A DNA stretch of 64,000 nucleotides, from assembly GCA_964371215.1 (NCBI GenBank), contig CAYJKU010000001.1:63335-127334 (forward strand). The letters run 5' to 3'. Positions within the stretch are counted from its first letter, which is position 1; each line of letters starts with the position of its first letter. Below are positions 1,754 to 42,001 of the stretch, piece by piece. Origin of the DNA: an uncultured Clostridium sp. Lineage in GTDB: Bacteria > Bacillota > Clostridia > TANB77 > CAG-508. The notes under the pieces were generated by a model. The model was not told the DNA's origin. It made no database searches and was given only the letters and a program-made list of their open reading frames with translations. The position numbers and the translations under genes were made by a program.

Positions 1754-3304
1754 ATGGAAAAGTACATTGGAAAAGTTAAATTTGTACTAATCACACTAGT
1801 AGTATGTATTTTTGCATTAATATTTCCGAAAACAGAGGTAAATGCAAATGTTATAGAGCCAACAACAGAGCAAAAAATAAAATTAGTAGCTACAGAGCTA
1901 AAAACAGGCACAAATGGAAAACAGCAATTAATAGTTGAAATGTGGCTTAAAGACCTAAACTTCCAAGGAATGGATATAGTATTACAATATGATTCTAATA
2001 TATTAAGCACATCAGATATGACAACAAATGAAATAATAGATGTAAATGAAGCAGCTTTTATTCCAACTTCATTCGAATATGCAAATGGATTTGAAAATTA
2101 TATGGATTTATTCTCAATGTCATTTGAAGCTGGTGAATTAAGAACAGTAATAAGCATAAATCCAAGTGATTGGTGGTTAGCAGATAGAAATGAATATATT
2201 ATAGAAGACTTAGTAAATGGAGATACAGTAAGTGCAAAAGGTGAAGTCCTCTTTGGAAAGTTAAGTTTTCAAGTAGGTGAAGGTCAAATAACAGAAGAAT
2301 CAATCAAATTAAAAAGTGGTTCGTCATCACCACAAACAGGAATTAAAGTATCGATAAATGGTACAGATTATTATGAAAATCCAAGTATGTTTGAATTTGT
2401 ACTTGCATTAGCATCAGAAAATGCTAACTTAAGTAATCTTCAAACAGATTTAAAAGAAATAACTTCATTTAATAAAGAAACATTGGAATATGAAATTATA
2501 TTAGAAGAAGATTCAGAAAAAATAGTAGTAACACCTACACCAGAAGATCCCACAGCTATAATTAAAATAGGAGAGGATGTGGTTGATCCAAGTTTAGGAT
2601 ATGATGTTATGCTAAATCCAGCAGGAGAGAATACAGTAATAACGATATTAGTTACAGCAGAAGATCTGGTGGCAACAAAAACATATGTAATAACCGTTAA
2701 AAAACCAGCAGGAACGATAACAGGTAATATAATAACATTTAATGGTCAAGGAATATATTCAGCACCAGTTAAAATATATTCAAAAGAACAAATAGCGAAT
2801 TTAACAGTTGTTGTAAATGAATCAACAGGAGAGACAGCATCATTTGATTGGAATACAATGAAAAACCATGATGCAATAGATAGCATAGAGCCATATAAAG
2901 AATTTGTAATAAATCAAGATGGAACGGTAAAACAAGATGGTGAGACAGATGAAGAATATAAAGCGAGAAACGGAACATATAATGAGAAAATAATGATAGG
3001 TACATATGACATAATAATAGATAAGCCAGGATATTTAGATTATATAATTACAAATGTAGTTATAACAGAAAACGGGATAATAGAAATTGGAGAAAAAGTC
3101 CTTGTGCCAGGAGATACAAATAAGGACGGAACAATAAACTTAGAAGATTTGGTCGAATTAAATAATCGATATGGTCAAAATGAGGAAACAGGAGATTTAT
3201 ATAGTATCAGATATGATATCACAGAAGATAAAGTAATAAACGTAACAGATTTAATAGAATTAAACAAAAATTACGGGCAAATTAAAGAAATTCTAAATCT
3301 ATGA
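1754..3304 (+). CDS. secreted cohesin-like / cadherin-like / prealbumin-like / type-I dockerin protein (adaptor-scaffoldin-like), 517 aa from the corrected start
   Basis: I chose the start at the second in-frame ATG (1754) because GGAGG lies 8 nt upstream. The signal peptide is MEKYIGKVKFVLITLVVCIFALIFPKTEVNA. The cohesin-like beta-sandwich pattern IKLVATELKTGTNGKQQLIVEMWLKDLNFQGMDIVLQYDSNIL matches the cohesin G..V.V.V...G....L.YD..L signature. A cadherin-like beta-sandwich follows (ANLSNLQ...YVITVKK). A CarboxypepD_reg/prealbumin-like segment contains the PGYL motif. The C-terminal dockerin is DTNKDGTINLEDL...DITEDKVINVTDL...NYGQ, with two Ca-binding loops. Confidence 0.8.
   Translation: MEKYIGKVKFVLITLVVCIFALIFPKTEVNANVIEPTTEQKIKLVATELKTGTNGKQQLIVEMWLKDLNFQGMDIVLQYDSNILSTSDMTTNEIIDVNEAAFIPTSFEYANGFENYMDLFSMSFEAGELRTVISINPSDWWLADRNEYIIEDLVNGDTVSAKGEVLFGKLSFQVGEGQITEESIKLKSGSSSPQTGIKVSINGTDYYENPSMFEFVLALASENANLSNLQTDLKEITSFNKETLEYEIILEEDSEKIVVTPTPEDPTAIIKIGEDVVDPSLGYDVMLNPAGENTVITILVTAEDLVATKTYVITVKKPAGTITGNIITFNGQGIYSAPVKIYSKEQIANLTVVVNESTGETASFDWNTMKNHDAIDSIEPYKEFVINQDGTVKQDGETDEEYKARNGTYNEKIMIGTYDIIIDKPGYLDYIITNVVITENGIIEIGEKVLVPGDTNKDGTINLEDLVELNNRYGQNEETGDLYSIRYDITEDKVINVTDLIELNKNYGQIKEILNL
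3103..3280 (+). other. type-I dockerin module of gene 1
   Basis: Duplicated DxNxDGxIxxxD-type calcium-binding loops, each followed by LxxxNxxYG. Confidence 0.7.
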
Positions 3305-3321: not shown

Positions 3322-6300
3322 ATGAGGGGAAATATTTTAAAAAAACAAGGGATAATTAGTGGAGTAATAATATTATTACTAATTGCAAATATGTTTGCGC
3401 CATATAGTGTGTTAATACCGAAAACATATGCTGCAACAGTTGTACCAGAAGTGCCAACAGTTGAAGTTAGAAAAAATTTAACATCACATCCATATTTTGG
3501 ACAATATTTAACACTAGATGTATATTTTAAAGGAGATATAATTGTATATGGAATGGATTTCTATATTAATTATGATTCTTCAAAAATAATACCAGCATAT
3601 ATAGATATGATGAGTTTTCAATTAAAACAAACGGATAGTTTAGCAAATTCAATTGGAACTACTGTAGTACAACCATATACAATGTTCTATGCTGCGAATC
3701 AATCATATTTAAATATAGCAGAAGAAACAATAAGGGTTGTAATGGCAGGAAATACATCAGCACCTAATCCGGCAGATAGTGGAGGAGAGTTAAAAGCATT
3801 TTCAATAATGTTTGTATTAGCAGATGGAGTTACAGATGAAGATTTAACAAAAGATATGTTTTCTTTTATTCCAATAGCTGGAGGAGTATTAGATACAGGA
3901 TTCCAATTAGGATATGATGGAGATAATGATGTAGGAACAATAACAGATACTACATATTTAAAAGATACTTCATATATGCAATTTACTGGATTTGCAGAAG
4001 GAGCTAAAACAGTTAGTTCAATAAATATAGTTGAGAATCCAACTAAAACAATATATGATCATGGAGATAATATAGACTTAACAGGTGGTAGATTAAGTAT
4101 TGAATACTCAGATGGTTCATCAGAAGAAGTAGATATGACATCATCAGATGTGTCTATCACAAGTGGAAATCCAGCAACAGTTGGAACAACTGTAGTTGAA
4201 TTGAAATATAAAGATGTAGCAACAAGTTTTAATATAACAGTAAATGATCCAGTTGATACAATTGAATTAACAACACCTATAACAAAAACAGAATATTCAC
4301 AAAATGAATCTGTAGATCTTACAGGTGGAGTTGTAACAGCAACAACTAAAAGTGGGGTTAAAACTACAATAAATTTACCAAATGCAAGTATAACTTCAAA
4401 TGTGACAACAGCAGATTTAACAGCTGGAAATGTCCAATTAACAGGAACAACAGGAGAAGGATTACCACGAGGTGTTCAAACAGGAACACTTACATATGAA
4501 GGTAAAACAGTAGATTTTGATATAGTAGTAAATGACACTATAGCAAGTATTGCAGCAAATGGAGCTAAAACAACATATAATTATGGAGATTCTTTAGATA
4601 AATCTCAAGGAAATATAACTGTAACAACAGGAAGTGGGGAGAATATAACTGTAAAATTATCACATGGTAGTGTGCAAATTACAGGATATAATCCAAATCA
4701 GTTAGGAAATCAAGAATTAACAGTTGAATACTTAGGAAAAACAAATACATATAATGTAACAGTTAATGACTATGTAACAGGGATATCAGTAACTAATCCA
4801 AGTAAAACAAACTATGATTTTGGTGAAGATATCAATCTAGCAGGTGGTAGTATAACTGAGACAATGGCATCAGGAGCGTCAGGAACAACTACAGCATTAA
4901 CTGAAAGTATGATATCTGGATATAATAAAAACAGTCCAGGGTCACAAACAATTAAAGTAACATATAATGGTTTTGAAAGTAATTTTTCAGTATCAGTAAC
5001 AGATACATTAGTAAGTATTGAAGTTACAGGAATGAAAACAGAATATACTTATGGAGAATCATTAGATTTCACAGGAGCTAAGTTGAAACAAAACCTGGCA
5101 AGTGGAACAAGTATATCATTATTAGATTTTACTCAAAGTATGATTACAAGTACATATAATCCAAACCAATTAGGAGAACAAACATTAAATATATCTCATG
5201 ATGGAGTAAATGGAACTTTTATAGTAAATGTAAAAGATGTATTAGATAGTATAGCAATAAATACTTCAAATGCACCGGTAAATAAATATGGATATGGTGA
5301 AACAGTAGCTAAATCGGGAGAGATAATAGCTAGTTATGTAAGTGGAGCAACTAAAAATATTGCATTAAGTTCAACAGGTATTTCTTTAGAAAATACAGAT
5401 AGTTCAGAATTTAATACTGAAAGTGTTACATTTACATCTGGAACAACAGTATCAAAAGATATGGTAATAAAATATGCCCAAGATTCAGTAGAAAAATCTG
5501 TAACATATCCAGTTACAATTGTAAATACATTAACTGGAATATCAATACAAGGAACTCCTCAATCTGCATATAATGTAAATGATAGTTTCCAAAATAATTT
5601 ATCTATACTAGTTTCAAGAATACAAGGAGCAGCAGAAGCTGTACTTGTAACTGAAGGTATGGTAACAGGGTTTAATACAGCAACAGAAGGTACGAGACAA
5701 GCAACAATTACGTACATTGAAAATGGAATAACAAAGACAGTAAATTTCAATTATACTGTAACAGATACAGTAACTAAGGTTGAAATGAATGCAAATCCAA
5801 GTAAAACAACATATAATTATGGAGAAGACTTAGATTTATCTGGAACAACTATCACAGTTACAAAAGGTAGTGGTTCAGAAACAGTAAATGTAGATGAATC
5901 AATGATAAGTGGATATAATCCAAATAAATTAGGTTCACAAACAGTAACAGTAGAATATGGAGGGCAAACTACAACATTTGATGTAACAGTAAATGATTAT
6001 GTAACAGGAATAACAGTAACTGCACCAACTAAGACAGAGTATAAATATAATGAAGATTTAGTATTAGATGGTGGTAAAGTAACAACAGTTATGGCATCAG
6101 GAGCAACTGGAACAGATATATTACTATCTGATTCAAGTGTAACATTATCTGGATATGATAAAACAGCAGTATCTTCACAAACAGTAACAGCAACATATGC
6201 TGGACATTCAGGAACATTTAATGTAAATGTAGTAGATGAAATATCTAATATAGTTGTAACAGTACCAACAAGTACTCAAGTATATAATCATGGAGATAAT

Positions 6301-9886: not shown

Positions 9887-9920
9887 AAAGGTAGAAAAAA
9901 AGAGAGTTTTCTACCTTTAC
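9887..9920 (+). terminator. candidate intrinsic terminator downstream of gene 2
   Basis: Hairpin aaaggtagaaaa-aaagagag-ttttctaccttt, 12 bp, with a weak T tail. Confidence 0.5.
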
Positions 9921-34900: not shown

Positions 34901-37900
34901 GTTCCAGAAAATACAGAAATCCTAAACTTAGAAGCAAAAACAGTAGATTCTGCTGCAAGTGTAAGTATAGAAGGACAAGAAGCAAGTAAACAAATTCAAA
35001 CTAAAGAAATAGCTATGGAAGAATATACTGTAAGAACAATTCCAGTAAAAGCTATATCTGAATTTGGTAATGAAGTAGAATATATATTAACTATATATGA
35101 AGAAACTGCATTAACAGAATTAGAAAGCTTAACTGTAAATGGAAAACAGGCAATTAAAAATAATATTTCAGAATATAGTATAGTTGTATCAAAAGAAACT
35201 GAAAGTGTAGAAATAGTTGCTAAATCTGTATATGAATTAGCAGATGTTAATATAAATCACTTAGGTGAAGAAGTACAAATTTCTACAAGAACAATAGAAA
35301 TAAATTCAGATGAAACAGTAGTTAGAATTACAGTTTCAGCAAATGGAAAAGATAAAGAATATACACTTAAAATTGAAAAAGAAAAAGATGCAACAAGTTT
35401 ATCTTCTGTATATGTAAATGGAGCTATAGTTGCAAATGTAAATAATACATTTGAAGCAACAGTAAACTCATCTGCAATTAACGCAGAAATAACAGCAATT
35501 GCATCAGTTGAAACAAGTTTAGTCAAAATTGCTGAAAATGAATCTGAAATCAAAATGTCAACTAAAACTGTTGAAATATCAGGAAATGAAACAATATATG
35601 AAATAATAGTAACTGATGGAAGTAATAGCGAAAACTTTGAAGTATACACTTTAATACTTAAGAAACCATCTACAGATAATTCATTAAAAGAAGTATCAGT
35701 AAGTAATGGTCTAAGTGTTATAAAAGCTGAAAAATCATCAGAAGGAAATATATATAATGTAAAAGTAAATGATACAGATACAGTATTAGATGTAAAAGCA
35801 GTAGCAAATTATGCATTAGCAGAAGTTGCAATACAAAATGATATATATACTATTGGGACAAATGAAAGTGAAATCACTTTAAATGAGGATACTACAAGTA
35901 TATTAATTAAAGTTAAAGCACAAGATGGAACAATAGCAGAATATACACTAAATATTGAAAGATTATCTTCAAATACAAATATATTAAATATAACTGTAAA
36001 TAATAATGAAACAACATTAAGCAAGACAGAAGAAAATGTATATGAATATACATTAACTGAAAGTTTAGCAAATGTAGATGTAAAAGTTACAATGGAAGAT
36101 AATTTAACAGATGTAGCGATAAATAATAAATTATTTGAAAAAGCTACAATTACAAAAACAGTAGATATAACAGGTAGATCAGTTGATGTAGTAATTAACA
36201 CTAAAGCTGAAAATGGTGATGAAAAAACATATAAATTAATCATAAAAGGATTACCAGATACTACTAATTTATCTAAAATAACTGTAAATAATATTGAAGC
36301 TATATATGTAGATAGTGGAGATAAATATCAAGTTAAATTAAATAAAAATGTAACAGAATTTACAGTAACAGCTGTTGCTGAAGATATATTATCTAAAATA
36401 GGAATAAATGAATTTGAAAATGAGGTAGCAACAACTACAAAAGTTATTTCAAAAACAGGTAATATAACAACTGTTAAGATAATTGTTACAGCACAAAATG
36501 GTATCGCAACAGGAGAATATATTTTAGAAATACTAGAACAATCTAGTGAAACAGGAATTAAAACTTTATCAGTAGATAATAATCTTGTGGATATAGATGA
36601 AAATGGTAAATATAGTACAAGTGTTGTAAACAAAGATACTGTTCAAATAGGAATTGTTTTAGTAGATGAAAATGCTACAGTTAAAATTGGAGAAATTGAT
36701 GGATTAACATCTACTCAAGATATCCAAGATGGAACAACAACAATTCCAGTAATAGTAACTGCAGAAGATGGAACTACAAAATCATATGAAGTAGTTATAT
36801 ACAAAATGTCTAATAATACAAATGTAACATCAATAGTTGTAAATGGAGAGTTAGCAATACTTGACGAAAATAATAATTATGTTGCAAATGTAGGAAATGC
36901 TAGTGAAGCTCAAATAGTTGTAACAGCAGAAGATGTTAAAGCTAGTGTTGAAATAGATGGTAATTTACCTCAAATGTCAACAAGTACAGCTACAATAGAA
37001 ATATTAGAAGATCAAGAATTGGTAGTTACAAATTTAACTGCTGAAGATGGAACATCAGAAGCTAAACAATTAATTATTAATACATATTCTAAAGATACAT
37101 CAATACTTAGTTTAACAGCTGAAAATATAGATAGTGAAAAAATTAGTCAAACAGGTGAATCTACTTATGAAATTGAAGTAAGTAATTTAACTACAAACAT
37201 TAATTTAACAGCTATAACTACATTTAATAAAGCTAAAGTTAAAATAGAAGATGGTGTGTATTCAGAAAATACAGTTACACAAGATGTAAATATTTCTGGT
37301 AAAGAAGAAATTAATATAACTGTTCAAGCTGAAAATGGAGATGAAAAAACATATATAGTATCAATTGTTAGAGTATATGATTTATCTATTAAATCTTTAT
37401 CAGTAGATAATACTATTATAGAAGAAGTAGATGGACAATATACAGCATGGGTAAACAGTAGTGTGACATCATCAGCATTAAAAATAGATACATTAAGTCC
37501 AGAAGCAATAATTAAAATTGGTGAAGAAACATATACTAACACAGTTACATTAAATGTAAATGTACCAGATAATACAAATACTATAAAAGTAAGTATATTA
37601 TCTCCAGATGGAAAAAATGAAACTTCATATAATGTGTATATAAATAAAAAATCTGGAGATACAGATTTAGAATATGTACAAGTAGATTCAAGTTTTGGTA
37701 GTTATGAAGAAGATAAATATGTAGTAACAGTTCCAATAAAAGATGATACATATTTATTAAAAGCTAAACCTAATAATGAATATGCTAAAATCAAAATAGG
37801 AAATAGTGAATTCTCATTAGGAGAAGTATCTTCTGAAATAGACTTATCTGGTAAAACAGAAGAAACAGTTCAAATAACTGTTGAAGCACAAGATGGAACT

Positions 37901-40900
37901 ACAAAAGTATATGATTTACTTATTAAAAAAGTTTCTTCAGATAATACTTTAAAAGTTGTTAAAGTAAATAATGTTGAATTAACTGAAGAAAACGGAGTAT
38001 ATAGGACATATATTAAAAATAATGTAACATCAGCACCAATATATATTGAAACTAATCATTCAAATGCAAAAATTATTGTAAAAGAAACTGAATATACAAA
38101 TATTGCAACATTTACTGAAAATACAGAAACAGGATCAAATTTAGAAATAACAGTAATTGCTGAAAATGGAACAACAGTTAAATATAATTTAATTATTGAA
38201 CATGAATCAAATGATGCAAGTGAACAAAGTGTAATAGTAGATGGTCAAGAAGCTGTTAAAATTGGAGACAATACATATAGAGCAACAGTTAAAAAAGATC
38301 AAGAAACTGCAAACATTTATGTTAAAGCAGCAAATGAAAAAGCAACAGTTAAAATAAATAATAATCCTCAAATAGCAATATATGAAAATACTATTCCAGT
38401 ACAAATTACAGATAGTAAATCAATTATAGTGCCAGTAACAATTACTGCACAAGATGGAACAACAACTAATACATTTAACATTGAAATTGAGCAAATATCT
38501 AATAATGTAAATATTGAAACAATTACAGTTAATGGATCAAGTGTTACAAGTTATGATGAATCATCAAAAACATATAATATAACACTTACAGATAATTCAT
38601 TAGAAGAATCTACTGTATATATTAAAACTGAAGATGTATTATCTAAAGTTAAAATAGAACCAGGAGAGTTATCTACACATGAATTAACAAATGTTGTTGG
38701 TATACCAGATGATATTACTACTTTAATAATTACAGTAATAGCAGAAGATGGTTCAGAAGGTAAATATAATTTAATTATTAAAAAATTATCTAAAGATGCA
38801 GAAATATTAGAATTTTCATTAAATGGAAATATAATTGAGATAAGTGCAGATGGTAAATATTTAATAAATACTGTAGAAAGTGTAACATCAGGTAATATAA
38901 GAGTAGTACCAAGTAATGAATTTGCAAAAGTTACTATTGAAGGAGTTCAAAGTTCAAATGTAGGTATATTTGAAAGAACAATCAATTTACCAGATCAAAG
39001 AACTTATGAAACAAAAGTAGTGGTAACTGCAGAAGATGGAACAGTTAAAGAATATCCAGTTATTGTTACTAAGATTTCAGATGATGTAAATGTTGGTAAA
39101 TTAACAGTAAATGGAGTAACTGTAACAGATTATTATGAAGATACAAAAACATTTGAAGCATTTATAACTGCTGAAAGTACAACTGCAAGTATTGTAGTTA
39201 CACCAGGAAGTAGTTATGCTAAAGCGGGATATGCTGAATTAGAACCAGCTACAAGTATATCGTATTCAGTAAATACACCAGGGGATATTACTTCATCAGA
39301 ATTCTATATAATGGCAGAAGATGGAACAATTCAAAAATATACTATTAAAATGCAAAAAATGTCGACAGATGATTCTTTAAAAGAAGTATTTGTTGATGGT
39401 AAATTAGTATTACCAGATGAAACAGGAAATTACTATATAAATGTTGCAGAAGATTTAGAAAAATCACTTGTAAAAGTAGTTTCAATGAGTGAATATGCTA
39501 CAATTAGTATTAATTACGAAGTAGCAGAACAATCTCAAAGTATAAGAGAAACTATGTTACAAACAAAATCTACAACAGTAAATATAGTAGTAGCACCTCA
39601 ACAAGGGGCAAGTAAAACATATACATTAGTAATATATAAAGGTTCTACAAATAATAATTTAGCAAGTGTTAAAGTAGATGGAGAAAATGTAATAACATAT
39701 AATCCAGAAACTAGAACATATGAAGCATTTATTACAAATGGAGCTACAAGTTCAGCAATTGAAATATTAGCTGAAAACGAATATGCAACAATAACAGTTG
39801 GAGAAAATACTGCAAAAGGAAAATTAACATATAGTCAAGTAGTAGAAGATGCTGTAACAACAATTGGAATTGATGTAACATCAGAAGTTGGGGAAACTCA
39901 AAAATATACATTAAAATTAAAATATATTTCAATAGATAATACAATTAAATCAGTAATGGTTGATGATGTATTAATTGAAGAAGATAGATTTGATGGATAT
40001 GTAACATATGTAGTAGATACAAATGAAATTGCTAATATTAAAATAGAAGCGAATAATCAATATGCAACAATTAATATTAATGATTTAATAGAATCAGAAC
40101 AATTAGCAGAATTAGAAGTTACTTTATCAGAAGATAAAGAATTAAATGTACCATTTACAATAATTGCTCAAGATGGAACTGAAAGTGTACATACATTAAA
40201 AATAGTAAAAATATCAGATAATAATTCAATCCAAAGTGTTAAAGTAAACAATGAAGAAATAACATCTTATGATGAAGAAACTAAAACATATACAGCATAC
40301 ATAAATGAAGATATAGTAGAAGCTGAATTAGCAATAGTTGCAGCAAATAGTATGGCGAGTATAGAAATAGGAGTAAACAGCAATGTTGGAAATATAACAG
40401 AAGTTATAGAAATAACAGAAGATATGACAACTATAAATGTAAAAGTAACAGCAGAAACATCAAGAGAAGAAAATTATGTGGTAAATATAATTAGAAAATC
40501 AGGAAATGCAAATATTAGTTTAGTAGAGGTAAATGATATAGGTATAAATTCACCATATACTACTACTATCAAAAAATTAGATGAAACAGCTAAAATAAAA
40601 ATCGTAACAGAAAACGAAAATGCAAGTATTAAAGTAGGAGAAAATGAACCAGTAATAGGAACATTTGAATTAGTTGTAGACTTAGAATTAAGTCAAGAAC
40701 AAATAGTAATTCCAGTAGTAATAACTTCACAAGATGGAGTAAATGTAACAAACCATAATATAACATTAAATAGATTAAATAATGAAACAAGTATTAAGAT
40801 ATTAAATGTAGATGGAACTGAGATTACAGGAATAGATGGAGAATATGAAGCATTAGTAGTAGGAAAAGATACAGCTGAAATATATATTGAATTAACAGAT

Positions 40901-42001
40901 AGTAATGCAAAAGTAAAAGTAGATAGTGGAGAATTCAGTACAGGAACATTAACAGCTACAGTTGATACAAAAACAACAACAATAAGAACAATAACAGTGG
41001 AATCAGCAGATGGAACTGTAAAAGAATATGTATTAACATTAACTAAAAAAATAGCAATTGAAGGTAAAGTAATAACTCAAGGAATAACAAATCATATTGC
41101 GACTGTAACAGCATATAGAACAGATGATACAAGAGTAATAGGAGATGAAGAAAATCCAAGAGAAGAAATGGCTAAAGTGGAAACAAGAGAAGATGGAACA
41201 TATCAATTAATATTAGAACCAGGAATGTATGATATAGTAATAACAAAACCAGGATATTTAAGTCATACAGTAACACATATTAGTTTAGAAGAAGGTTCAA
41301 ATGCAGTCATAGAAGATAAGTCAATTTATGGTGGTGACGTTATAGAGACAGGTGAAATAGAAATAGATGACTTAGTAAATATGAATAAAATGTATGGAAG
41401 ACCAATAACAGATGTAAATAGAAAATATGATTTAAATGATGATGGAAAAATAGATATTTTAGATAGAAATATGTTAAGAGCAAATTATACTAAAAAATCT
41501 ATAGTTGAAAAATGGGTAAATCCTAATCCAGTAATTCCAGAAACAATAAATGAAGTTCAAAAAGAACAAGTTAAATTCATAATTCCATTAGAAGGAAACT
41601 ATGAAGTAACAAGTGAATATGGACAAAGAATCCACCCAGTAACAGGTGAAGAATCTAAACATACAGGTATAGATATAGCAGGAGCTCATAGAGCAAATAT
41701 ATTATCTATAGCAGATGGTGAAGTAGTATTTGCAGGAGAAGCTGGAGGATTTGGAAATGCAATAGAAATAAGACATGAAGTAGATGGAGAAGTGGTATAT
41801 AGTTTCTATTCACATTTATCACAAATAGATGTAGAAGTAGGAGATAAAGTAACACAAGGACAAGTTATAGGATTAGAAGGTGGAGATCCAGAATTAGACC
41901 AAAATGTTGGATTAAGTACAGGACATCATTTACATTTTGAAATAAGAGTAAAACAAGGATATGGAAATGATGTAGACCCTAGACAATATATTAATTTCTA
42001 A
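10946..42001 (+). CDS. giant (10,351-aa) multidomain surface protein: signal-anchor, RCC1 beta-propeller/Big_2 array, 23 cadherin-like domains, prealbumin-like domain, dockerin-like module, C-terminal M23 metallopeptidase
   Basis: A single uninterrupted 31,056-bp ORF with a good RBS. The N-terminus is MNKLKNGKDNFKITRKGLAVIILIALITVIAAILGI (basic n-region plus a 20-aa hydrophobic helix). There are well over 100 RCC1 blades of the form DGTVWxWGxNxYGQLGxG. Big_2 domains recur as Y(T/K)SL..(E)IATVSETGLVTAV..G...I and W.SSN.E.ATVD..G.VTA.S.G. A cadherin-like array spans 34545-41040. The M23 domain has HTGIDIA (HxxxD) and HHLHFEIRV (HxH) motifs. Confidence 0.9.
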   Translation: MNKLKNGKDNFKITRKGLAVIILIALITVIAAILGISKTYQNVLVSNKQLNSIKGNDVNKGAAQLLVNNISVKTTDAKVVTAENHTVLLKEDGTVWSWGANESGQLGMGQTGTGYNSINPIQVVGINGEGFLTDVVDIAANRQYTIALKSDGTVVTWGLGTSGQLGNFTNVSSPFPVVVIDQNQEPLTGITQIAAGYNSGYVVKNDGTAYSWGADSYGSLGSSKTSTRNYAMNVEVTNSEGEIVNLTNVQDITGGQYHGIALLNDGTVWSWGWNRYGKLGDGTKTNADIAIQTNITDVKKIVSGEYFVIALKNDGTIWTWGRNSYGQVGHGAVSTSSTGGIVTPGQPLKTDGTALVDVKDIGVISETTYAITNSGEVYAWGLNTSGQVADKTVANKTRAVVMQDRFGNLAGNVTLPDSPNGETAHMLDGEKLIATGKNNANQLQIPTSVASINYMTILDQSEQELVLNNNQEYIKIGESIQLTAKYNETMNIYSTNLLAGNLEYISSNSNIATVNNSGQVRGVGAGEVTIICTDKTNGNEARIQLNIIDNKDGVITNSMVVSNQYATIMLKEDGTVLSMGKNTNNVLGIGATVAYQTYLPIQVIQENGEKLTNVVKISAGIHHTLALKADGTVWSWGYNNYGQLGLGNSTTYGVAKQVVNVDNTGYLTDIVDISTSTYTSVALTKEGIGYSWGYGSGYGLGLTSASNRTLPSQIISSKEIVQIELGESKIHLLLSDGRIKSMGTNTYGQLGTGLGTSTYTYFEYAVNEDNTKYLTDVARISSGKIHTIALMENQTAYGWGYNNYYELGNETRTNQLLPKQLTGISNEGIMENIREVSAAPNSTIVLLNNGTVYAAGLNTTGQLGIGTNSNSQMFTPVVEYKVVEEETIVSQITDIVKLGDNKYLSQGYIKNDGTVNMTGENVSLQLGDNTALNRNITVKSGVGVEKIYTQSETIKIDINGKYQIVTKYSEGLNLRLIDEIVKNPNELTYISKNESVATVSAAGEITGKSNGQTGIEIIDETNNLETTVYVQIGEVQEQDILEIQTSTRFTVALKNDGTVWTWGLGTYGELGNGKFENSIEPVQVISPTGQGFLTDIVDIAIGDTFVLALNKNGNVYSWGRNTSGELTAGPERRSVPGLVLQYDGTPLNGVKEITARISSAAAVKIDGTVFAWGVNTSGQLGQGNSTNISYATQVKDTQGTGVIQNIKSASMGTSHLVMLTNEGTVFAVGVGSAGQLGNGVKGNTTLPVQMKVDATTVVTDVVQIATGNIVSYVLKNDGTILATGDSNDGKTGQGNETDIIYLMPVLKAAGEPLTNVSEITDSYFTQIAITKDNKVYSFGRNNYGQAISTVIANRLYATEITGSYGVTDYPKIIETSSDKTANYTYLVKEDGSVLGMGLQDNYKSQTSGTGTQTILREINPSYMEITNRRNYLKVGENVTLETNVVENFNMFGEAPIVGNLTWESSNEEVAVVNSNGVVTAISEGDTTITVIDSKYGYVASSIIHVTKNIEGNITVPQVEQGTYFTIALKADGTVWATGYNNYGQLGDGTTTLSPDMKQVKINETEYLANIVRIEVAEYHVLALDKNGEVWAWGRNSHGQLGQNTTTNSSYPIKVKNSVGDGNITNVIDIAVTNETSIFLKADGTVEMVGDNGHGKLSTGNTTASRLPIKATGIDNVLDVSGNNDSVIFLQGTGKVWAVGNNSSAELGDKTVTISYLPREVSNSTGDGQLSGIVQIATGLHHTAALAKDGSVYIWGRGTNGQLGNNQTVATNTIPVKVIDGSNTSSAIKNVSYVGTSQYTTSVVTKDGKMYSTGENSSNQLGTGTGVDSLVFIEAKDTTNSNISDILFVTNSIGNISNNAVIKEDGTIWTTGTNEYGQLGNGTFETNTVYGLVGKYQIDAENEQTIKEKETYQITAKRIPPFNVFNLQDTRENNMTYTSLNTEIATVSATGLVTAVSMGQVRIDIYDQLTEVIESINIKVVAEEGDIATPQVLSTTNAVLNLKTDGTVTSWGNSTNGILGNGTTSGIQATETNVLEVGGVGNLSNVVQIEAAVETGYALKADGTVVGWGQNNYGQLANHTTSISTTPVYILDVSKNKLTDIVKISATYQGGLALKSDGTVWAWGYNNYSQLGIGSTSQVYYAIQVKDSTGKAFLTDIKDISSGHGSNYAIKNNGTVFAWGRNSYGELGTGNTTASALPVETLKGLDVKKIAANMRSLYVLTEKGELWSVGYNGQGQLGNGTTSTSSVLVRVLDESGKALTNIVDIGGQEYTGFAKDANGVIYSWGENTSGQAGQNSLVNVTRATPIKGKYGELLTNKIKFLPNGYNGNMPAIFLIGYDGLIYSAGTTANYVALEGRSYNKTGFEEITPDYMQINERTVYLKETQTQILTTSVVSKVNGFGKVIEPGKLTWSSSNGAIATVDQNGKVTAISEGRVNIKVVDTNGYTASSNIIVTKNSENVVTIPQIGVGLNFTVILKADGTVWTSGTNTYGQLGSGNTLERNVVGQVKISENKNLENIVKISVGDSHVMALTTNGEVYVWGYNSVGQLGQNTTTNSIYAVKMLNETGTDEISNIIDISATDDTSVLLNSAGKILSVGSNSYGEFGTGNTTASRLPVMMTDKENIIQISSTERSLSYLTGEREVWSIGYNSYGQFGDKTTTAGYYPVQAMDDDSVGVLSNITKISTGIHHVVALSEDGYAYTWGYGLQGQLGNNTMVNSSVPTKILTIDGTKAIQDIIDIGTSERTTSVLSTSEGLLTTGQNSYYEIGNGNNTNTKLLVKPQVVQGANLDNILTLSNSNQSAYNNSVIKKDGSVYIVGANTYGQIGNETYTLSSNYTEVGNIGLATKSAHTMKVDSTYQIQVERTDSLNVYNDVIQRNNKLIYSTSDEEIATISETGLVTGKATGLATINIFEESTEVTTQVMIRVVETEGEIAIPQIVSSSTATFSLKADGTVTSWGTNSSGVLGNGTTAGIQYEEKNVLGVGGEGILSDVVQISAAYDSVYALKADGTVVSWGNDTYGKLGDKVSGNSSTPVYVVDSKGERLTNVIKIDNTYYGAMALKADGTVWAWGYNGQSQLGQGNSTNYDYAVQVKDTTGRGYLIGIKDIAAGYRTGYAIDNTDTIWAWGYNSYGEHGVGATGATTLPRQSNVDLDIKKMVVGTSQVYILTEQGSIYAWGRNSEGQLGIGTIAHSYVPVQVLGVDGKPLTNMVDIGAQEYTAFAKDADGVIYSWGENTSGQAGQNSLVNVTRATPIKGQYGETFTEEIKYLPSGYIGNMNTQYLIGEDGTVYASGYGASRGMLQTTSYNWLGFKAVLPDYLQINERVSYIKEGETKELTTSVVGRLNAYGKPISIGNLVWKSSNEEIATVDQKGVVTAKTSGEVTIIAVDSSNGNIASATINVTKNTKGTVAIPMTAMGQGYTAILKADGTVWTVGDNTYGQLGDGTNITKTQPVQVKINSTEFLTNVVRIEVGFTHTLALTKNGEVYAFGQNQFGQLGQGNTTSLNYATRVKDITGTNYLENIVDIAIAGGSASYVSSYALTTDGFVYGWGNNSYSQLGDKTTTNRYLPVKVQDAYNVKDIAGSYAAIHMLNQDTTVSGVGYSAHGQLGSNVTFSNHTADIQDVINPTRNGVFRGIVKIEGGTHHVMYLTEDEKAYAAGYNAYGQLGTGNTTNYIYPIQLKSDMKIVDISASYHSSIIKTEQVVDGEKVYKVWNAGYNLGGQFGIGNTTNSSIFVELKDSSNQNVNLDIDMIGASKPSTSGNSSYIDINGYVWTVGANSYGQLGNDTFNTSYNVIRIGSLILIPNEYTYTMNPSNTKQISLTLTDTFNVYNKETTLGSIEYKSLDTDIATVSETGLVTAVTKGSTRIQITDKTNDVKTVIFVDVLPENEEIKYTSMVDGGTSHSVALKSDGTVWAWGLNSKGQLGNNTTITTENPTQVVGVNIEKFLTDIKQIAVGSNHTLALKADGTVYSWGDNTYGQLGDNSNSIKYAPVQVLGENGQGVLSNIKYIEAGESVSIAVDEEGKVYAWGQNQYGQLGDGTNIARSVPVKTKAALTGIIQVDTYNRHTVAVKADGTVWAWGYNSHGELGDGTTTARNIPVQMKLTATTYIENAIEVATQRYSTNILLDNGTVLSVGYNAQGQLGDGTTTQRLLPVTVRGVGNNGVLSNIVSISGGYYSAYALSKNGQVYSWGYNNLGQLGNNTQTVSSLPVNVVNSSIEGNLENIISIGSGTYHVLAIEDTGFVQTWGSNASKQLGDSTLPHASIPVYISSKIEMIPSDAKLVINETVQLGIKMNSFNLFEDINEEGREVIYKSLNEEIATVSETGVVTAKSFGVTRILATDVVSGRVATAEISVLENNKQVSPKIDNGSNHFISLKADGTVWTWGDNTYGQLGNGSNIDSQVPTEIKIEDVIDVAAGFNHSIVLKKDGTVWTWGYNGYGQLGQGNTTTSYTPVQVKGVNGQGYLTNVKAVFGNGYTTFALLNTGEVVGMGRNTYAELGDRTTSNRYTPVYVLDQYGVSPMKDIIDVIPSTTSVAAIRADGTVWAWGYNHYGQLGINTLINSKITLPMQVRDVTGTNTLQNIIQVTSHYSGFTALKADGTVYSWGYGTQGRLGIGSNSSSYMPIQVKSPDGTGFLTDIVRLDGKFSSIAISADGKVYSWGSNSYGQLGVKTNSYRNLPTQVFAENGTDYLTDIMFATSGNSTAFVDYEGNVYTTGYNINGELGNDTTINRNIVTNVSEVIISNNENPIKLGKSGETHQLEAVAKKRFNLLKETVDNVNLKYTSLDESIATVSETGLVTAVGTGYTFIKISDETLGTSTSVKVEVLGDGITLPKVIGGENFYIALKADGTIYTWGRNSQGQLGQGHTTNVLEPTKVEGLEGIIDIAAGRYSAYVVKSDGTVWGTGYNNYGQLGINNTTRKNTFTQVLAENGIDYLSGIIGISANNYHVAALKQDGSVVAWGYNGYGQLANNSTTTKYIPTKMHGVNNVIQVEAGLHSMYMLSGDGSIYAVGYNSYGNLGNGTTSGTITPIKVLNPEGTAEMENVREISAGSYHLGVITYDNKLYQTGYNSQGQLGDGTTSHKNKLVLVQENVKTVSSYMNITNIIKEDGTVWSTGRNAYGNAGNNTTANNTRFVQMLGENGIGIFENALFVTNSEESTLVADKSGKVYTTGYNGYGELGDSTTVTKRVLSGISLEKVTVKESIVTINSISGTKEIESSMNLGFNILYNELKNATFTYKSSNEKVATVTANDTKTKGIITAVDYGTTTIEVQNVETGGTAIVIVRVLREGDVANPKVVAGSDFSVALKSDGTVWTWGSNNYGQLGLGDTTYRTEPTKVENLEGIIDIAAGRSHVIALKSDGTIYTWGLNNYGQIGDNTNVNKNTPTKIVGLDNLIDITGGYYHTSVLKSDGTVYSWGYNGHGQLGDGTTGTKNSPTTVKGISNVKDISAGHYTTLAVTIDGNTWAWGYNGYGFLSTPAGTNVLPKLVGLDNIASVEVGINSYAAISNVGELYTWGLDSNQVLGNGNLGTTYVPTLVRDIDGEKLTGITNVDIGSYTTLATTSEGKVYGWGNNNYSQLGTGNTAVQSLPILLQNSMGEFTNVIEIASGYDHTIVVRNDGSVWTTGYNGAGRLGDKTTFNKNMYGSISDMNISLEENKIVLAKEGDTYELKPTISVGFNLLYDEIPETSYTYESANIDIATVSQTGVITAVSRGKTRIKLTEEKTNKITYLEVSVLQEGDITFPKVETSNYTTIALKSDGTVWGWGYNDYGQLGLGNNQTVISPTKLPIDNVIDISVGYRHSLFLKSDGTVWAVGNNSYGQLGNATKTSSYEILQVRDIDGGEYLSNIKSIDIGRYHSMALDKSGNVYTWGYNGQGQLGNGTYTLSTIPVKVSGISNIITIEAGYRSGYGLSNDGTVYSWGYNIYGQLGDGSSTTRTSPTRAFITNVIEISVSQSDNVLALKDDGTVWGWGRNTYNALTDVGGSAPKQLKGLDGNRMSGIKDIESSYYSGFAVTETGETIAWGYNTYGQLGIGNNSSTSVPVIVKESETENFANTLSISGGVNYTSFAKEDGTVWTVGDSAYNKLGNGEKVDLNIPKNIAIPYISVDNDELAIVENTSMNLNAKFDTGFNLFEDTKIDVELAYEIKDTNIATIDNTGNVTAKSVGKTYVYITYQNYVRRVEINVIAKEGESVIDVSAGARHTLSLKSNGTLWVFGNNVYGQLGTGLVDNTNILEPEQIDTGDIRFSQVATGRYHSMALDKAGNVYTWGYNAQGQLGNGTSATSGKLTKIETLSNIKEIYADEYKSMAIDINGNIYVWGSGFGATPIKYPYYTEVIDISESYVLLQDGTVWSISLTPVKVETLSNIVEIAEGTSHYLALSADGTIYAWGSNSYGQLGQGNTSSITVPTVVKNSDNTGNLTDIVQIETSRYSSYAITGDGNIYSWGRNIYNSLGVTTASDRITLPISVTTEEAIEITSGDYFGAYVDNAGFVHTWGYNGYGQLGHGDTTIHEIPSLIGEIGIENSLKNITLNINQTQELDIKLRNKFNLRIDEISSGEFNLDILNNDIISIENNNIVPKKVGTTVIIVNENVTGLTDTINVEVIENVTTPRIESGEDFTIAVKADGTIWSFGLNDKSQLGIGNSENQNEPVQIIMPDSSRIKDIEVGTSHTLILTENGKVYGFGYNGNGQLGLGHTYNSNKPTAFLDESGRTFTNIIDVSAVGNKSYVLTIDGDVYVTGEGYNKLATEILTDEKIISIYGNYGITIDKKAINLDTLEIISNVENVEKISVSDTHVILLTQNNVAYALGDNEYGQLGNGTKLDSNTAIQIKDSVGTGVLSNISEIKAGTNYSVAILENGDTYVWGSNENGKLSRISETDLVLPRKENIKENIFMIETGTNHTVIATEEGRVYAFGKGTEGQLGNLANENSIEPVQVGKESIVVDEYNITLNEKETLYLNARLRNFNILAKDVEGNFTYKANDTKTVTVDNTGKLTAISSGTSSVVVTEGEKQLIVQITVIPENTDVKSSVETTDSHTAILKADGTVWTYGQNNYGQLGIGNTSNVDDLTQVIFSENVKIISIKTGENHTIALDENGNVWTWGRNTSYQLGVTGGTRTRPIKLDLGVKIEKIEAGYNQSFAITENRELISWGDNSNGELGVNKYTYTTLPTKAYEIEDVLDVQAGRSHTLILKTNGDVYGTGHNGFGTLAIEEYRINSFRKIEELSNIEYIYAGEYQSAALAMDNNMYVWGYNIYGNFGLGNKDTIKVPTILEGINNIEEISLGKTYSSIITEDGKMYMSGSNVQGQFGNDTDESTEIFVEVTNINEVIDISVGNTYSAAIKADGTVWAWGDYYHGITDTRTITNSLVPIQVGIDKFALKENEITVNVSRNKQIEVIPNEDFNVYVTKEETINEYNYISLNPEVVTVNEQGVLTGIKVGTTWVKVQDRVTGEEQVAIIRVIGNTNTVAPQIAAGNNFVNILKADGTIWSAGYNSQGQLGNGTYTPSNTLNQINNVKTYTQILAGNDFVIALKNDGTVYAWGENSLGQLGQGNRVNMTAPTQIPGLQDIVKISAGDNHVVALNKYGEVYSWGSNSNYQLGLGNNKNQDIPQKMVLPQIKVIDVETGENGTVIIDSLGDMYTVGLSNEQYNTITKIENVSNVVKAEISGNSIIALLENGNVINIADSVTDIYTAGNATDISAVADENMIQTNSGEVYTFGLNASGELGNNSTNEITVPTKIERENTIIGIGSGEHNTYIIEDTGRVYAAGNNDYGQIGNNTNEGNMEYVLVDSNKVELSPENEVIVENETLTFEMISNRFNVLKEDSRIITDFTWSVTDETILENIEDGTVKGLIPGKADVVLTEKETGAVINSVVIVEEADKARIERITVGNTLAKITDSMTYEVTIAESNSEELKITTKDKSDKISIDNGTTWFENGILTLNKEILSNPEVVEILVESEFGIQYEFTLNIISKSNNVDLEYIKVNDITATAINGNNYQVIVPENTEILNLEAKTVDSAASVSIEGQEASKQIQTKEIAMEEYTVRTIPVKAISEFGNEVEYILTIYEETALTELESLTVNGKQAIKNNISEYSIVVSKETESVEIVAKSVYELADVNINHLGEEVQISTRTIEINSDETVVRITVSANGKDKEYTLKIEKEKDATSLSSVYVNGAIVANVNNTFEATVNSSAINAEITAIASVETSLVKIAENESEIKMSTKTVEISGNETIYEIIVTDGSNSENFEVYTLILKKPSTDNSLKEVSVSNGLSVIKAEKSSEGNIYNVKVNDTDTVLDVKAVANYALAEVAIQNDIYTIGTNESEITLNEDTTSILIKVKAQDGTIAEYTLNIERLSSNTNILNITVNNNETTLSKTEENVYEYTLTESLANVDVKVTMEDNLTDVAINNKLFEKATITKTVDITGRSVDVVINTKAENGDEKTYKLIIKGLPDTTNLSKITVNNIEAIYVDSGDKYQVKLNKNVTEFTVTAVAEDILSKIGINEFENEVATTTKVISKTGNITTVKIIVTAQNGIATGEYILEILEQSSETGIKTLSVDNNLVDIDENGKYSTSVVNKDTVQIGIVLVDENATVKIGEIDGLTSTQDIQDGTTTIPVIVTAEDGTTKSYEVVIYKMSNNTNVTSIVVNGELAILDENNNYVANVGNASEAQIVVTAEDVKASVEIDGNLPQMSTSTATIEILEDQELVVTNLTAEDGTSEAKQLIINTYSKDTSILSLTAENIDSEKISQTGESTYEIEVSNLTTNINLTAITTFNKAKVKIEDGVYSENTVTQDVNISGKEEINITVQAENGDEKTYIVSIVRVYDLSIKSLSVDNTIIEEVDGQYTAWVNSSVTSSALKIDTLSPEAIIKIGEETYTNTVTLNVNVPDNTNTIKVSILSPDGKNETSYNVYINKKSGDTDLEYVQVDSSFGSYEEDKYVVTVPIKDDTYLLKAKPNNEYAKIKIGNSEFSLGEVSSEIDLSGKTEETVQITVEAQDGTTKVYDLLIKKVSSDNTLKVVKVNNVELTEENGVYRTYIKNNVTSAPIYIETNHSNAKIIVKETEYTNIATFTENTETGSNLEITVIAENGTTVKYNLIIEHESNDASEQSVIVDGQEAVKIGDNTYRATVKKDQETANIYVKAANEKATVKINNNPQIAIYENTIPVQITDSKSIIVPVTITAQDGTTTNTFNIEIEQISNNVNIETITVNGSSVTSYDESSKTYNITLTDNSLEESTVYIKTEDVLSKVKIEPGELSTHELTNVVGIPDDITTLIITVIAEDGSEGKYNLIIKKLSKDAEILEFSLNGNIIEISADGKYLINTVESVTSGNIRVVPSNEFAKVTIEGVQSSNVGIFERTINLPDQRTYETKVVVTAEDGTVKEYPVIVTKISDDVNVGKLTVNGVTVTDYYEDTKTFEAFITAESTTASIVVTPGSSYAKAGYAELEPATSISYSVNTPGDITSSEFYIMAEDGTIQKYTIKMQKMSTDDSLKEVFVDGKLVLPDETGNYYINVAEDLEKSLVKVVSMSEYATISINYEVAEQSQSIRETMLQTKSTTVNIVVAPQQGASKTYTLVIYKGSTNNNLASVKVDGENVITYNPETRTYEAFITNGATSSAIEILAENEYATITVGENTAKGKLTYSQVVEDAVTTIGIDVTSEVGETQKYTLKLKYISIDNTIKSVMVDDVLIEEDRFDGYVTYVVDTNEIANIKIEANNQYATININDLIESEQLAELEVTLSEDKELNVPFTIIAQDGTESVHTLKIVKISDNNSIQSVKVNNEEITSYDEETKTYTAYINEDIVEAELAIVAANSMASIEIGVNSNVGNITEVIEITEDMTTINVKVTAETSREENYVVNIIRKSGNANISLVEVNDIGINSPYTTTIKKLDETAKIKIVTENENASIKVGENEPVIGTFELVVDLELSQEQIVIPVVITSQDGVNVTNHNITLNRLNNETSIKILNVDGTEITGIDGEYEALVVGKDTAEIYIELTDSNAKVKVDSGEFSTGTLTATVDTKTTTIRTITVESADGTVKEYVLTLTKKIAIEGKVITQGITNHIATVTAYRTDDTRVIGDEENPREEMAKVETREDGTYQLILEPGMYDIVITKPGYLSHTVTHISLEEGSNAVIEDKSIYGGDVIETGEIEIDDLVNMNKMYGRPITDVNRKYDLNDDGKIDILDRNMLRANYTKKSIVEKWVNPNPVIPETINEVQKEQVKFIIPLEGNYEVTSEYGQRIHPVTGEESKHTGIDIAGAHRANILSIADGEVVFAGEAGGFGNAIEIRHEVDGEVVYSFYSHLSQIDVEVGDKVTQGQVIGLEGGDPELDQNVGLSTGHHLHFEIRVKQGYGNDVDPRQYINF
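12550..23950 (+). repeat. four tandem super-repeats of about 2.83-2.85 kb within gene 3; each is a double RCC1 propeller plus two Big_2 domains
   Basis: Unit starts are recognisable at about 12.57, 15.47, 18.30 and 21.13 kb (VTKN...GT.IP...G..FT.ILKADGTVW...). There are near-identical DNA tracts, for example 17716-17877 versus 20546-20710 (FAKDANGVIYSWGENTSGQAGQNSLVNVTRATPIKGKYGE), offset 2830 bp. Confidence 0.75.
23950..34540 (+). repeat. eight tandem units of about 1.3-1.4 kb within gene 3; each is a single RCC1 propeller plus a Big_2 domain
   Basis: Unit starts with the motif (V/I)xVLxEGD(I/V)..PKV..G..F..ALKADGTVWTWG are at about 23.99, 25.39, 26.77, 28.12, 29.46, 30.71, 31.96 and 33.29 kb. 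Confidence 0.75.
34545..41040 (+). repeat. array of 23 cadherin-like beta-sandwich domains within gene 3; period about 282 bp (94 aa)
   Basis: The recurrent unit is ...L..L.VNG..(I/V).....Y...V......V.I.A.......V.I..........I.V.AEDG...(E/K)Y.L.I.K. I counted 23 domain ends of the type Y.L.I.K between 34.8 and 41.04 kb. Confidence 0.75.
41055..41290 (+). other. CarboxypepD_reg/prealbumin-like domain at the giant-protein C-terminus
   Basis: IEGKVITQGITNHIATVTAYRTDD...REDGTYQLILEPGMYDIVITKPGYLSHTV. Gene 1 shows the same architecture (GTYDIIIDKPGYLDYIITNV). Confidence 0.55.
41326..41495 (+). other. dockerin-like module of the giant protein
   Basis: GGDVIETGEIEIDDLVNMNKMYG...DLNDDGKIDILDRNMLRANY. 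The second loop is a canonical DxNxDGxIDxxD; the first loop is degenerate. Confidence 0.55.
41600..41960 (+). other. M23 family (lysostaphin/LytM-type) metallopeptidase domain, C-terminal in the giant protein
   Basis: YGQRIHPVTGEESKHTGIDIAGA...GGFGNAIEIRHE...YSHLSQIDVEVGDKVTQGQVIG...GHHLHFEIRV. Both zinc-ligand motifs, HxxxD and HxH, are present. Confidence 0.8.

Follow-up and report, generated by a model that had tools for sequence, protein, structure and literature searches.

Cohesin–dockerin pairing is the textbook glue of cellulosomes. Outside cellulosomes, such modules have reportedly long been recognized as widespread, as in a review said to be widely cited, [quoted passage not shown] and to our knowledge few of the widespread noncellulosomal pairs have a defined architecture or purpose. 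The glycoside-hydrolase toxins NagH, NagJ, and NanJ of Clostridium perfringens (2jh2, 2o4e, 2vo8, and 2ozn) use pairs of this kind. Here, we analyze a 64,000-nucleotide stretch of DNA, hereafter the window, from an uncultured Clostridium sp. (assembly GCA_964371215.1, contig CAYJKU010000001.1, positions 63,335 to 127,334). The window is low in G+C (22 to 32%), and three consecutive open reading frames (ORFs) on its plus strand, gene 1 (1754–3304), gene 2 (3301–9804), and gene 3 (10946–42001), carry between them two cohesin-fold modules and two dockerins. We consider it on balance probable that they encode a conserved, noncellulosomal cohesin–dockerin surface assembly of anchor, adaptor, and cargo in uncultured low-GC gut Clostridia.

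Two further systems are close to this locus. The human-gut Firmicute Ruminococcus bromii builds an amylosome, a cohesin–dockerin assembly of GH13 amylases with carbohydrate-binding modules (CBMs) (PMC4611034). West-Roberts et al. described RCC1-repeat proteins of more than 10,000 amino acids (aa) in human, mouse, and rabbit gut metagenomes; their RCC1 giants come from Oscillospiraceae, consist "entirely" of one repeat type, and have no transmembrane anchors, and dockerin repeats were seen on some giant proteins of Clostridia, while their account contains neither cohesin partners nor an M23 domain or a conserved cassette (bioRxiv 10.1101/2023.11.21.568195). Our literature search, with subscription journals outside its coverage, found no description of the present cassette. 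The initial annotation of the window knew of no description of the configuration, and no matching description has turned up, with the qualification that giant RCC1 proteins of gut Clostridia had already been noted, outside any cohesin–dockerin context.

Two Predicted Cohesin-Fold Modules

The N-terminal domains of gene 1 (about 190 aa; residues 33–224, positions 1850–2425) and gene 2 (positions 3436–4041), here called Coh1 and Coh2, had no match to Pfam Cohesin (PF00963), even at E ≤ 10, and phmmer searches with both against the sequences of the PDB found no solved cohesin. We modeled both with AlphaFold2 (AF2) and compared the models with the PDB using Foldseek. The Coh1 model, computed from an 11-sequence alignment of the gene 1 N-terminal domain, reached a pLDDT of 90.6 and a pTM of 0.88, and its first 45 structural matches were all cohesins, the best being 4wi0_A (E-value 1.4e-7, TM-scores 0.60/0.67). 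Type II cohesins led the ranking (4wi0_A, SdbA 2bm3, and 2b59_A) and were followed by the cohesin-like modules of C. perfringens and by type I cohesins. For the gene 2 N terminus, a word-indexed protein search returned no match, the query itself included; an exhaustive search of 1.84 billion representatives recovered 60 relatives, nearly all of them N-terminal on long proteins. The Coh2 model, computed from a 22-sequence alignment, had a pLDDT of 86.7 and a pTM of 0.82, and again type II cohesins came first (1tyj, E-value 5.5e-8).

The top 18 to 45 structural matches of the two modules were exclusively cohesins, and C. perfringens cohesins appeared among the matches of both at E-values of about 1e-4. 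Failure of the domains to adopt the cohesin fold had been named beforehand as one of the outcomes that would speak against the proposal; in structure prediction, both adopt it, with the nine-stranded flattened β-sandwich of jelly-roll topology that defines the fold. The two modules are also homologous to each other in a profile–profile comparison using the 22-sequence Coh2 alignment (97.3% probability, E-value 2.3e-11, 150 columns), where an earlier hhalign comparison of the Coh1 profile with a three-sequence Coh2 alignment had given a probability of 25% only. Because the fold matches and the mutual homology come without a sequence-profile match, we regard Coh1 and Coh2, on the strength of their models, as type II-like modules with the cohesin fold, from a divergent family that escapes current sequence profiles.

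A Canonical and an Atypical Dockerin

The dockerin of gene 1, Doc1 (3095–3283, plus strand), just exceeds the Pfam cutoff of 22.9 bits (PF00404, E-value 6e-5, 23.6 bits). It has the duplicated segment of about 22 residues that defines dockerins, each copy consisting of an EF-hand-like Ca2+ loop and a helix. Both loops, DTNKDGTINLED and DITEDKVINVTD, are canonical, with ligand residues at positions 1, 3, 5, 9, and 12; the helices are near-identical (DLVELNNRYG and DLIELNKNYG), and the best sequence matches in the PDB are the dockerins 4wi0_B and 2y3n_B. The initial annotation had likewise called this dockerin canonical.

The module near the C terminus of the giant gene 3 (Doc2, or DocG; 41306–41524, plus strand) is less regular. 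As a single sequence it stays below the Pfam cutoff (PF00404 E-values of 0.006–0.07, 13.8–17.2 bits), and its best match among PDB sequences is 2y3n_B with an E-value of 0.0095. A profile of seven giant-type dockerins finds solved dockerins far more clearly (2y3n_B at 7.6e-7, 4wi0_B at 3.9e-5, and another at 9.3e-5), and all seven members of the family match Pfam Dockerin_1, the best at 2.5e-6. The family shares a strongly conserved signature, aGDVaEsGEIEIDDLV ... DLNEDGKIDILDR ... NYGK ... KWV. The first loop, DVIETGEIEIDD, lacks the ligand at position 3, which is Ile here and Ala in relatives; the second, DLNDDGKIDILD, is canonical; and the helices differ from each other. On the basis of these sequence comparisons, we take the module to be homologous to dockerins and to represent a conserved, atypical variant with a degenerate first Ca2+ loop. 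The earlier wording "dockerin-like" was thus right about its kinship and too weak about its identity. Binding of Ca2+ by the first loop is uncertain.

Cellulosomal dockerins with symmetric repeats have dual binding modes, those with asymmetric repeats a single one. Since the repeats of Doc1 are near-identical and those of the giant-type dockerin dissimilar, the two would, by analogy, have different specificities.

Architecture of the Three Proteins

Gene 1 starts with the ATG at 1754 and encodes a putative adaptor of 516 aa. A signal peptide and Coh1 are followed by a cadherin-like β-sandwich domain (2432–2701; PF12733, E-value 8.7e-13), by a CarboxypepD_reg-like β-sandwich (2705–3088; a weak PF13620 match, E-value 0.005, with precomputed PF13620 matches in homologs) that directly abuts Doc1 and is a possible analog of an X-module, and by Doc1 itself. 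The family is rare, with only 14 members among 5.8 billion proteins. The gene 1 stop codon overlaps the start codon of gene 2 (ATGA, 3301–3304), which suggests that the two proteins are produced together.

Gene 2 encodes a putative anchoring scaffoldin of 2167 aa, belonging to a family of about 60 representatives among the 1.84 billion. Behind the signal peptide and Coh2 stands a stalk of 22 Big_3 Ig-like domains (4042–9366; PF07523, E-value 1.7e-136), the sole Pfam match in the protein, the count coming from a hidden Markov model (HMM) iterated on the protein itself. The protein ends with a transmembrane helix (residues 2060–2081, 9478–9543; hydrophobic stretch WIPVIAGILSILGAGIFFIILA) and a cytoplasmic tail of 86 aa (9544–9801). 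Searches with tblastn found the tail at the C terminus of the homologs in seven related loci (L001, L002, L006, L007, L010, L013, and L014; the L and P numbers are our labels for relatives), and it is kept in all homologs with a visible end, including the stalk-less P0030. This conservation suggests an intracellular partner or a signaling role of the anchor. There was no SLH match in gene 2, and no LPXTG motif was noticed on reading. The initial description of gene 2 as a cohesin on a long Ig-like stalk with a C-terminal membrane anchor agrees with this order.

Gene 3 is a single uninterrupted ORF encoding the giant, a putative cargo protein of 10,351 aa. A basic N-region is followed by a hydrophobic segment of 20 residues (residues 17–36, 10994–11053; GLAVIILIALITVIAAILGI), predicted to be either a signal anchor or an uncleaved signal peptide; the giants of L001 and L002 have a similar segment. 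The bulk of the protein consists of 17 tandem units, each of an RCC1-like β-propeller and a Big_2 domain and with a period of about 450–480 aa (11168–34501; PF25390, PF00415, PF13540, and PF02368), and of 23 cadherin-like β-sandwich domains (residues 7880–10037, 34583–41056; PF12733). Pfam finds RCC1/WD40_RLD, Big_2, and Cadherin-like repeats, and the counts of 17 Big_2 and 23 cadherin-like domains were obtained with HMMs iterated on the protein itself. A CarboxypepD_reg domain (41063–41320; PF13620, E-value 9e-8) abuts the dockerin, and an M23 metallopeptidase domain closes the protein (41588–41998; PF01551, E-value 3.2e-24, 85.4 bits against a cutoff of 28.7), as had been annotated. Both M23 motifs are intact, HxxxD as HTGID (residue 10239, 41660–41674) and HxH as HLH (residue 10328, 41927–41935), from which we predict that the domain is catalytically competent.

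Searched with HMMs of the four module families, the whole 64 kb yielded no cohesin or dockerin beyond these four modules. Glycoside hydrolases and CBMs were absent from the three genes and the 20 flanking ORFs scanned, about eight small ORFs lying outside the scan, and also from every member of the cassette families examined. The window does contain a CE4 polysaccharide deacetylase (62552–63325) and a PMT_2-type glycosyltransferase (47866–49536), both unlinked, housekeeping-type genes without dockerins. The initial annotation had claimed a locus free of carbohydrate-active enzymes, which is right for glycoside hydrolases and CBMs in the scanned ORFs and, taken strictly, wrong for the window. 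Its three ORFs were all found with the modules it described, at coordinates within about 30–100 nt of those given here for the cohesins and dockerins, and its scaffoldin parts list is real: a membrane-anchored stalk with a single cohesin, an adaptor with a cohesin and a dockerin, and a dockerin-bearing cargo.

Conservation of the Cassette Across Lineages

Relatives were recovered by exact-protein look-ups and by a scan of one genome per species. The gene 1 family was found only in gut metagenome-assembled genomes (MAGs) and metagenomes labeled uncultured Clostridium or Clostridia, from human (including Hadza), rabbit, and goat sources. In all 11 distinct lineages recovered, the gene 1 homolog lies directly upstream of a gene 2-type ORF, and in the window, L001, L002, L006–L013, and L017, the two overlap or are separated by 20 nt at most. 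The long ORF following the gene 1 homologs has the gene 2-type cohesin, Big_3 repeats, and, where its end is visible, the same transmembrane helix and tail. The surroundings change from lineage to lineage (a release factor in the window, tRNA synthetases in L002, an integrase region in L001, and mreBCD in L017), and because the neighbors differ everywhere, we regard the cassette itself as the conserved unit.

An RCC1–dockerin gene is linked to these genes in five lineages. It lies downstream of the pair in the window, L001 (9,747 aa), and L002 (14,679 aa), and immediately upstream of gene 1 in L010, where the giant has the same end of cadherin-like domains, CarboxypepD_reg, dockerin, and M23; the linkage thus persists through a change of gene order. 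The L014 locus has a gene 2-type anchor and, after it, a small RCC1–CarboxypepD_reg–dockerin gene. A scan of metagenomes with the giant-type dockerin returned 16 loci with the conserved signature, several of them explicitly from the human gut. The tail order of cadherin-like domains, dockerin, and M23 holds in 15 of the 16, the other (L035, a 2.3-kb contig) showing the cadherin-like domains and the dockerin only, and M23 is found in L010 and P0081 as well. The gene 1–gene 2 pair occurs without an adjacent giant as well, in L017. In L037, an unrelated N-terminal region is joined to CarboxypepD_reg and a Doc1-type dockerin, and the next gene encodes a stalk-less protein of Coh2, transmembrane helix, and tail. 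This conserved linkage is established here along with the folds, the domain order, and the catalytic motifs.

Two irregularities were seen among the relatives. In L002, an ORF of 272 aa (19866–20684) with a transmembrane segment and a glycine-rich (ALK_LTK_GRD) region overlaps the start of the giant (20623 onward) and is probably the true N terminus of that giant, split off by a frameshift or an assembly error. The other irregularity concerns gene 1, which is intact in the window. In two species, Coh1 of the gene 1 homolog is interrupted at the same codon (L010:9796–10020 and L011:9748–10008): translation in the zero frame runs through ...FQRI or ...FKRI to a TGA, and a +1 shift at CGG ATT TGA TGT continues with D-V-R-F in exact register with the family. 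The site has the same shape as the programmed +1 frameshift site of prfB, CUU UGA C. A third species, represented by three independent assemblies (L013/L017/L018, around 9900–10010), has ATT AGA A at this place and a second shift about 40 nt upstream, and the L012 homolog is split elsewhere (10046–10649). The interruptions are either candidate programmed frameshifts or signs of a decaying adaptor gene.

Proposed Assembly and Its Alternatives

From this material, we infer the binding, pairing, topology, and biological role as follows. Gene 2 would be a type I membrane anchor, held in the membrane by its C-terminal helix and conserved cytoplasmic tail and presenting its cohesin at the far end of the 22-domain Big_3 stalk, about 80–100 nm away if the stalk is extended. 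Gene 1 would be a secreted adaptor, translationally coupled to gene 2, whose symmetric dockerin plugs into Coh2 and leaves the paralogous cohesin of gene 1 free. The asymmetric dockerin of the giant, with the adjoining CarboxypepD_reg domain, would in turn plug into Coh1. This would mount on the stalk a fiber measuring a few hundred nanometers and built of 17 RCC1 propellers and 23 cadherin-like domains, and would hold the M23 peptidoglycan peptidase right beside the docking point. A small membrane protein encoded after the giant (see below) may control or neutralize the peptidase.

Doc1 is assigned to Coh2 because the Doc1-type gene always stands immediately upstream of the Coh2 anchor, even in L037. 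The full scheme, with Doc1 on Coh2 and the giant dockerin on Coh1, is further suggested by the existence of the gene 1–gene 2 pair without an adjacent giant and by the clear distinctness of the two dockerin types. The most likely role of such an assembly, and the least supported step of the proposal, would be long-range adhesion to other cells or to particles in the gut combined with local cleavage of the peptidoglycan of a neighboring bacterium, not of the producer, in antagonism or scavenging. Action on neighbors is favored over self-remodeling because the stalk would carry the dockerin–M23 end at its tip, a long way from the wall of the producer.

Several points weigh against this assembly, and we consider them together with the alternatives they bear on. 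Coh1 and Coh2 have only 10–17% identity to solved cohesins, their TM-scores are moderate (0.5–0.67), and neither reaches any Pfam Cohesin score. These facts would suit independent fibrillar adhesins, whose genes are clustered by coregulation and whose cohesin folds are tip domains binding host, dietary, or bacterial ligands; gene 2, with a tip domain, a long Ig-like stalk, and a membrane anchor, is laid out like a fibrillar adhesin, and the dockerins would then be Ca2+-stabilized structural modules or bind partners encoded elsewhere. We find this explanation unlikely, given that the leading structural matches are cohesins without exception, that the 2:2 stoichiometry of cohesins and dockerins is confined to the cassette, that the adjacency of Doc1-type and Coh2 genes is kept through domain shuffling and changes of gene order, and that the overlap of the gene 1 stop and the gene 2 start suggests coproduction.

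Also counting against the proposed assembly, no giant is found within about 2.6 kb after the gene 1–gene 2 pair in L013/L017, and P0048 unites a Coh2-type cohesin with a Doc1-type dockerin within a single protein chain. The latter is awkward for a Doc1–Coh2 pairing because the presumed cognates share a polypeptide, unless the protein polymerizes with itself. An explanation built on such polymerization, to which we give a similarly low probability, has the giant dockerin bind Coh2 directly, while gene 1 or P0048-like proteins associate head to tail into a filament or sheath. Besides P0048, it can draw on L014, where the RCC1–dockerin gene comes after the gene 2-type anchor and gene 1 does not intervene, and on the frameshifted Coh1 of several lineages with an otherwise intact cassette, a hint that Coh1 is dispensable or regulated. 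Gene 1 usually lies upstream of gene 2, however, and the L014 sequence excludes that upstream region. Known adaptor scaffoldins such as ScaA/ScaB avoid self-cognate cohesin–dockerin pairs, and polymerization of the adaptor would be a conjecture.

For the anchor–adaptor–cargo assembly, the geometry of the giant is a further difficulty: if its N-terminal segment is uncleaved, the protein is already tethered to a membrane and the simple arrangement of cargo on a stalk changes. M23, too, may have a self or a nonself target. A self-directed function, the least likely of the alternatives, is one in which the giant tethers sister cells, its N terminus in one cell and its dockerin on the stalk of another, or M23 remodels the peptidoglycan of the producer for the passage of very large proteins or for cell separation. 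It fits the conservation of the hydrophobic segment, the common action of M23 peptidases of the LytM/EnvC-type family in autolysis and division, and the position of the L017 pair next to mreBCD, a PBP2-type gene, and minC; that context is probably coincidental because the neighbors differ in every lineage, and M23 placed beside the dockerin at the tip of a stalk of that length would be far from the producer's wall. A polymorphic toxin system was rejected because the C-terminal domain is invariably M23 wherever a C terminus is visible and hence not polymorphic; the polymorphic-toxin survey of Aravind does not treat RCC1, M23, or PepSY in this way.

Small Genes and Transcription Signals

Downstream of the giant, a gene at 42681–43133 (plus strand) encodes a single-pass membrane protein of 150 aa with a conserved extracytoplasmic domain of about 70 aa. 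Homologs with 45–59% identity (E-values 1e-12 to 1e-18) adjoin the cassette in L007, L010 (two copies), L013/L017, and L014–L016 (two copies), and homologs lie directly 3′ of the giant gene in L023–L026. Besides the window, at least seven lineages thus have the conserved ectodomain next to the cassette, frequently twice, and the protein is probably a fourth cassette member. The locus was initially described as one of three genes; the three are there, and the cassette has at least one conserved member more.

The family is weakly PepSY/Inhibitor_I69-like, with two of eight members matching at an E-value of about 0.005. A search of the family against the PDB gave no match, and the PepSY identity could not be firmed up. 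Going by its sequence and place, the protein might inhibit the M23 domain or confer immunity to it. In one human-gut clade, a second, separate M23 ORF of 223–331 aa follows the giant and replaces the small membrane protein (L020:7209–8087, L021:11120–11788, and L022:10839–11831).

A bolder conjecture, which we think has little chance of being right as a whole, combines these elements into a submicrometer "tether-and-cut" device. The RCC1 fiber, presented by the membrane stalk and the adaptor, would capture neighboring bacteria, M23 at the docking joint would lyse them, the PepSY-like protein would serve as the immunity protein or inhibitor of the producer, and a prfB-like +1 frameshift (ATT TGA T) within the cohesin would, in some lineages, gate production of the adaptor, all of this making up a new contact-dependent weapon or a device for predation or scavenging in Clostridia of the human gut.

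Between gene 2 and the giant, a small conserved ORF of 86 aa lies on the minus strand (10218–10478). It is 82% identical in L001/L005 and 54% identical in L006, at the same position and in the same orientation, and with 82% identity to L001 it is better conserved than gene 1 (63%). It has no signal peptide and no Pfam match. A promoter-like site precedes it (10534–10505), and a bidirectional terminator-like hairpin lies at 10199–10215.

The giant transcript would end at an intrinsic-terminator-like hairpin with a 20-bp stem and a T-run (42028–42075, plus strand; 0.0 expected in shuffled sequences), and the small membrane-protein gene has a promoter-like site of its own (42631–42659). These signals suggest three transcription units: gene 1 with gene 2, up to the hairpin at 10199–10215; the giant, up to 42028–42075; and the small membrane-protein gene. 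No riboswitch or other Rfam element was found in the locus, including upstream of gene 1 and of the giant, and we accordingly dropped the idea that a cyclic di-GMP riboswitch upstream of these genes controls adhesin expression. The only Rfam match at the gathering threshold in the window is a single tRNA gene (53472–53545, plus strand).

Two other ORFs lie close to the 3′ end of the giant. A short ORF with its flanks (42100–42480, plus strand), which may resemble the C-terminal part of an Rpn/YhgA-like PD-(D/E)XK transposase-family protein, is probably a gene remnant; it separates the terminator of the giant from the small membrane-protein gene. A convergent gene (43760–45706, minus strand), about 1.7 kb past the end of the giant, encodes a protein of 648 aa that is almost entirely Beta_propel (PF09826, E-value 6e-161).

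Discussion

As far as computation allows, our results support the initial proposal of a hierarchical surface structure, and with it the cassette as a noncellulosomal cohesin–dockerin assembly with a distinctive and conserved architecture. Uncultured gut Clostridia, human-gut samples included, have kept a complete set of anchor, adaptor, and cargo together as a cassette. The cargo ranks among the largest proteins of bacteria and has a peptidoglycan hydrolase at its end. Profile-based censuses of cohesins miss whole families. If the proposed pairings are true, they give a concrete, testable function to the enigmatic giant RCC1 proteins of gut Clostridia, extend the scaffoldin principle to adhesion or interbacterial attack, and add two new, probably orthogonal cohesin–dockerin pairs, invisible to sequence profiles, that would be useful for protein engineering.

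The closest relative in design is the cellulosomal hierarchy of type II cohesins and X-dockerins (Acetivibrio cellulolyticus ScaA–ScaB and Clostridium thermocellum CipA–SdbA; 4wi0, 2b59, and 3l8q). It has the same three-tier logic, and its complexes are the closest matches of the cassette's modules, by structure for both cohesins and by sequence for both dockerins. A β-sandwich domain of CarboxypepD_reg type abuts each dockerin of the cassette, in a place like that of the X-module in cellulosomal type II systems, of which it may be an analog. The cassette differs in having one cohesin per protein instead of arrays, in lacking glycoside hydrolases, CBMs, and SLH domains, in being anchored by a transmembrane helix and tail, and in carrying as its cargo one giant nonenzymatic repeat protein with a peptidase; its cohesins, unlike the cellulosomal ones, are undetectable by Pfam Cohesin. 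With a single cohesin per protein, a transmembrane anchor, and neither carbohydrate-active enzymes nor CBMs in the ORFs scanned, it is not a cellulosome.

The C. perfringens toxins, too, come from a gut-associated low-GC Clostridium, which joins large secreted proteins outside a cellulosome, as is proposed for the locus described here. Their modules connect soluble glycoside hydrolases, whereas the cassette combines a membrane stalk, an adaptor, and a giant of RCC1 repeats and M23, with no glycoside hydrolase. The amylosome is likewise a reuse of cohesin and dockerin for something other than cellulose and, unlike the cassette, carries carbohydrate-degrading enzymes.

Gram-positive fibrillar adhesins have a stalk of Ig-like repeats and a distal binding domain, and gene 2, from its N-terminal tip domain through 22 Big_3 domains to its C-terminal anchor, has their layout. 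Its tip is a predicted cohesin, however, with its presumed ligand encoded next door, and it is anchored by a transmembrane helix and tail, not by LPXTG and sortase. M23 bacteriolysins such as lysostaphin and zoocin A and the LytM-type autolysins are small enzymes targeted by SH3b-like wall-binding domains. The giant shares the HxxxD and HxH motifs with all of these, whereas its M23 domain stands at the end of a 10,351-aa protein, directly after a dockerin.

The giant, finally, belongs with the RCC1 giants of more than 10,000 aa described by West-Roberts et al.: its 10,351 aa are dominated by 17 RCC1 units, and all its relatives come from gut MAGs or metagenomes. It departs from them in the cadherin-like domains, dockerin, and M23 domain that follow the RCC1 array, in its N-terminal hydrophobic segment, and in the two cohesin genes linked to it.

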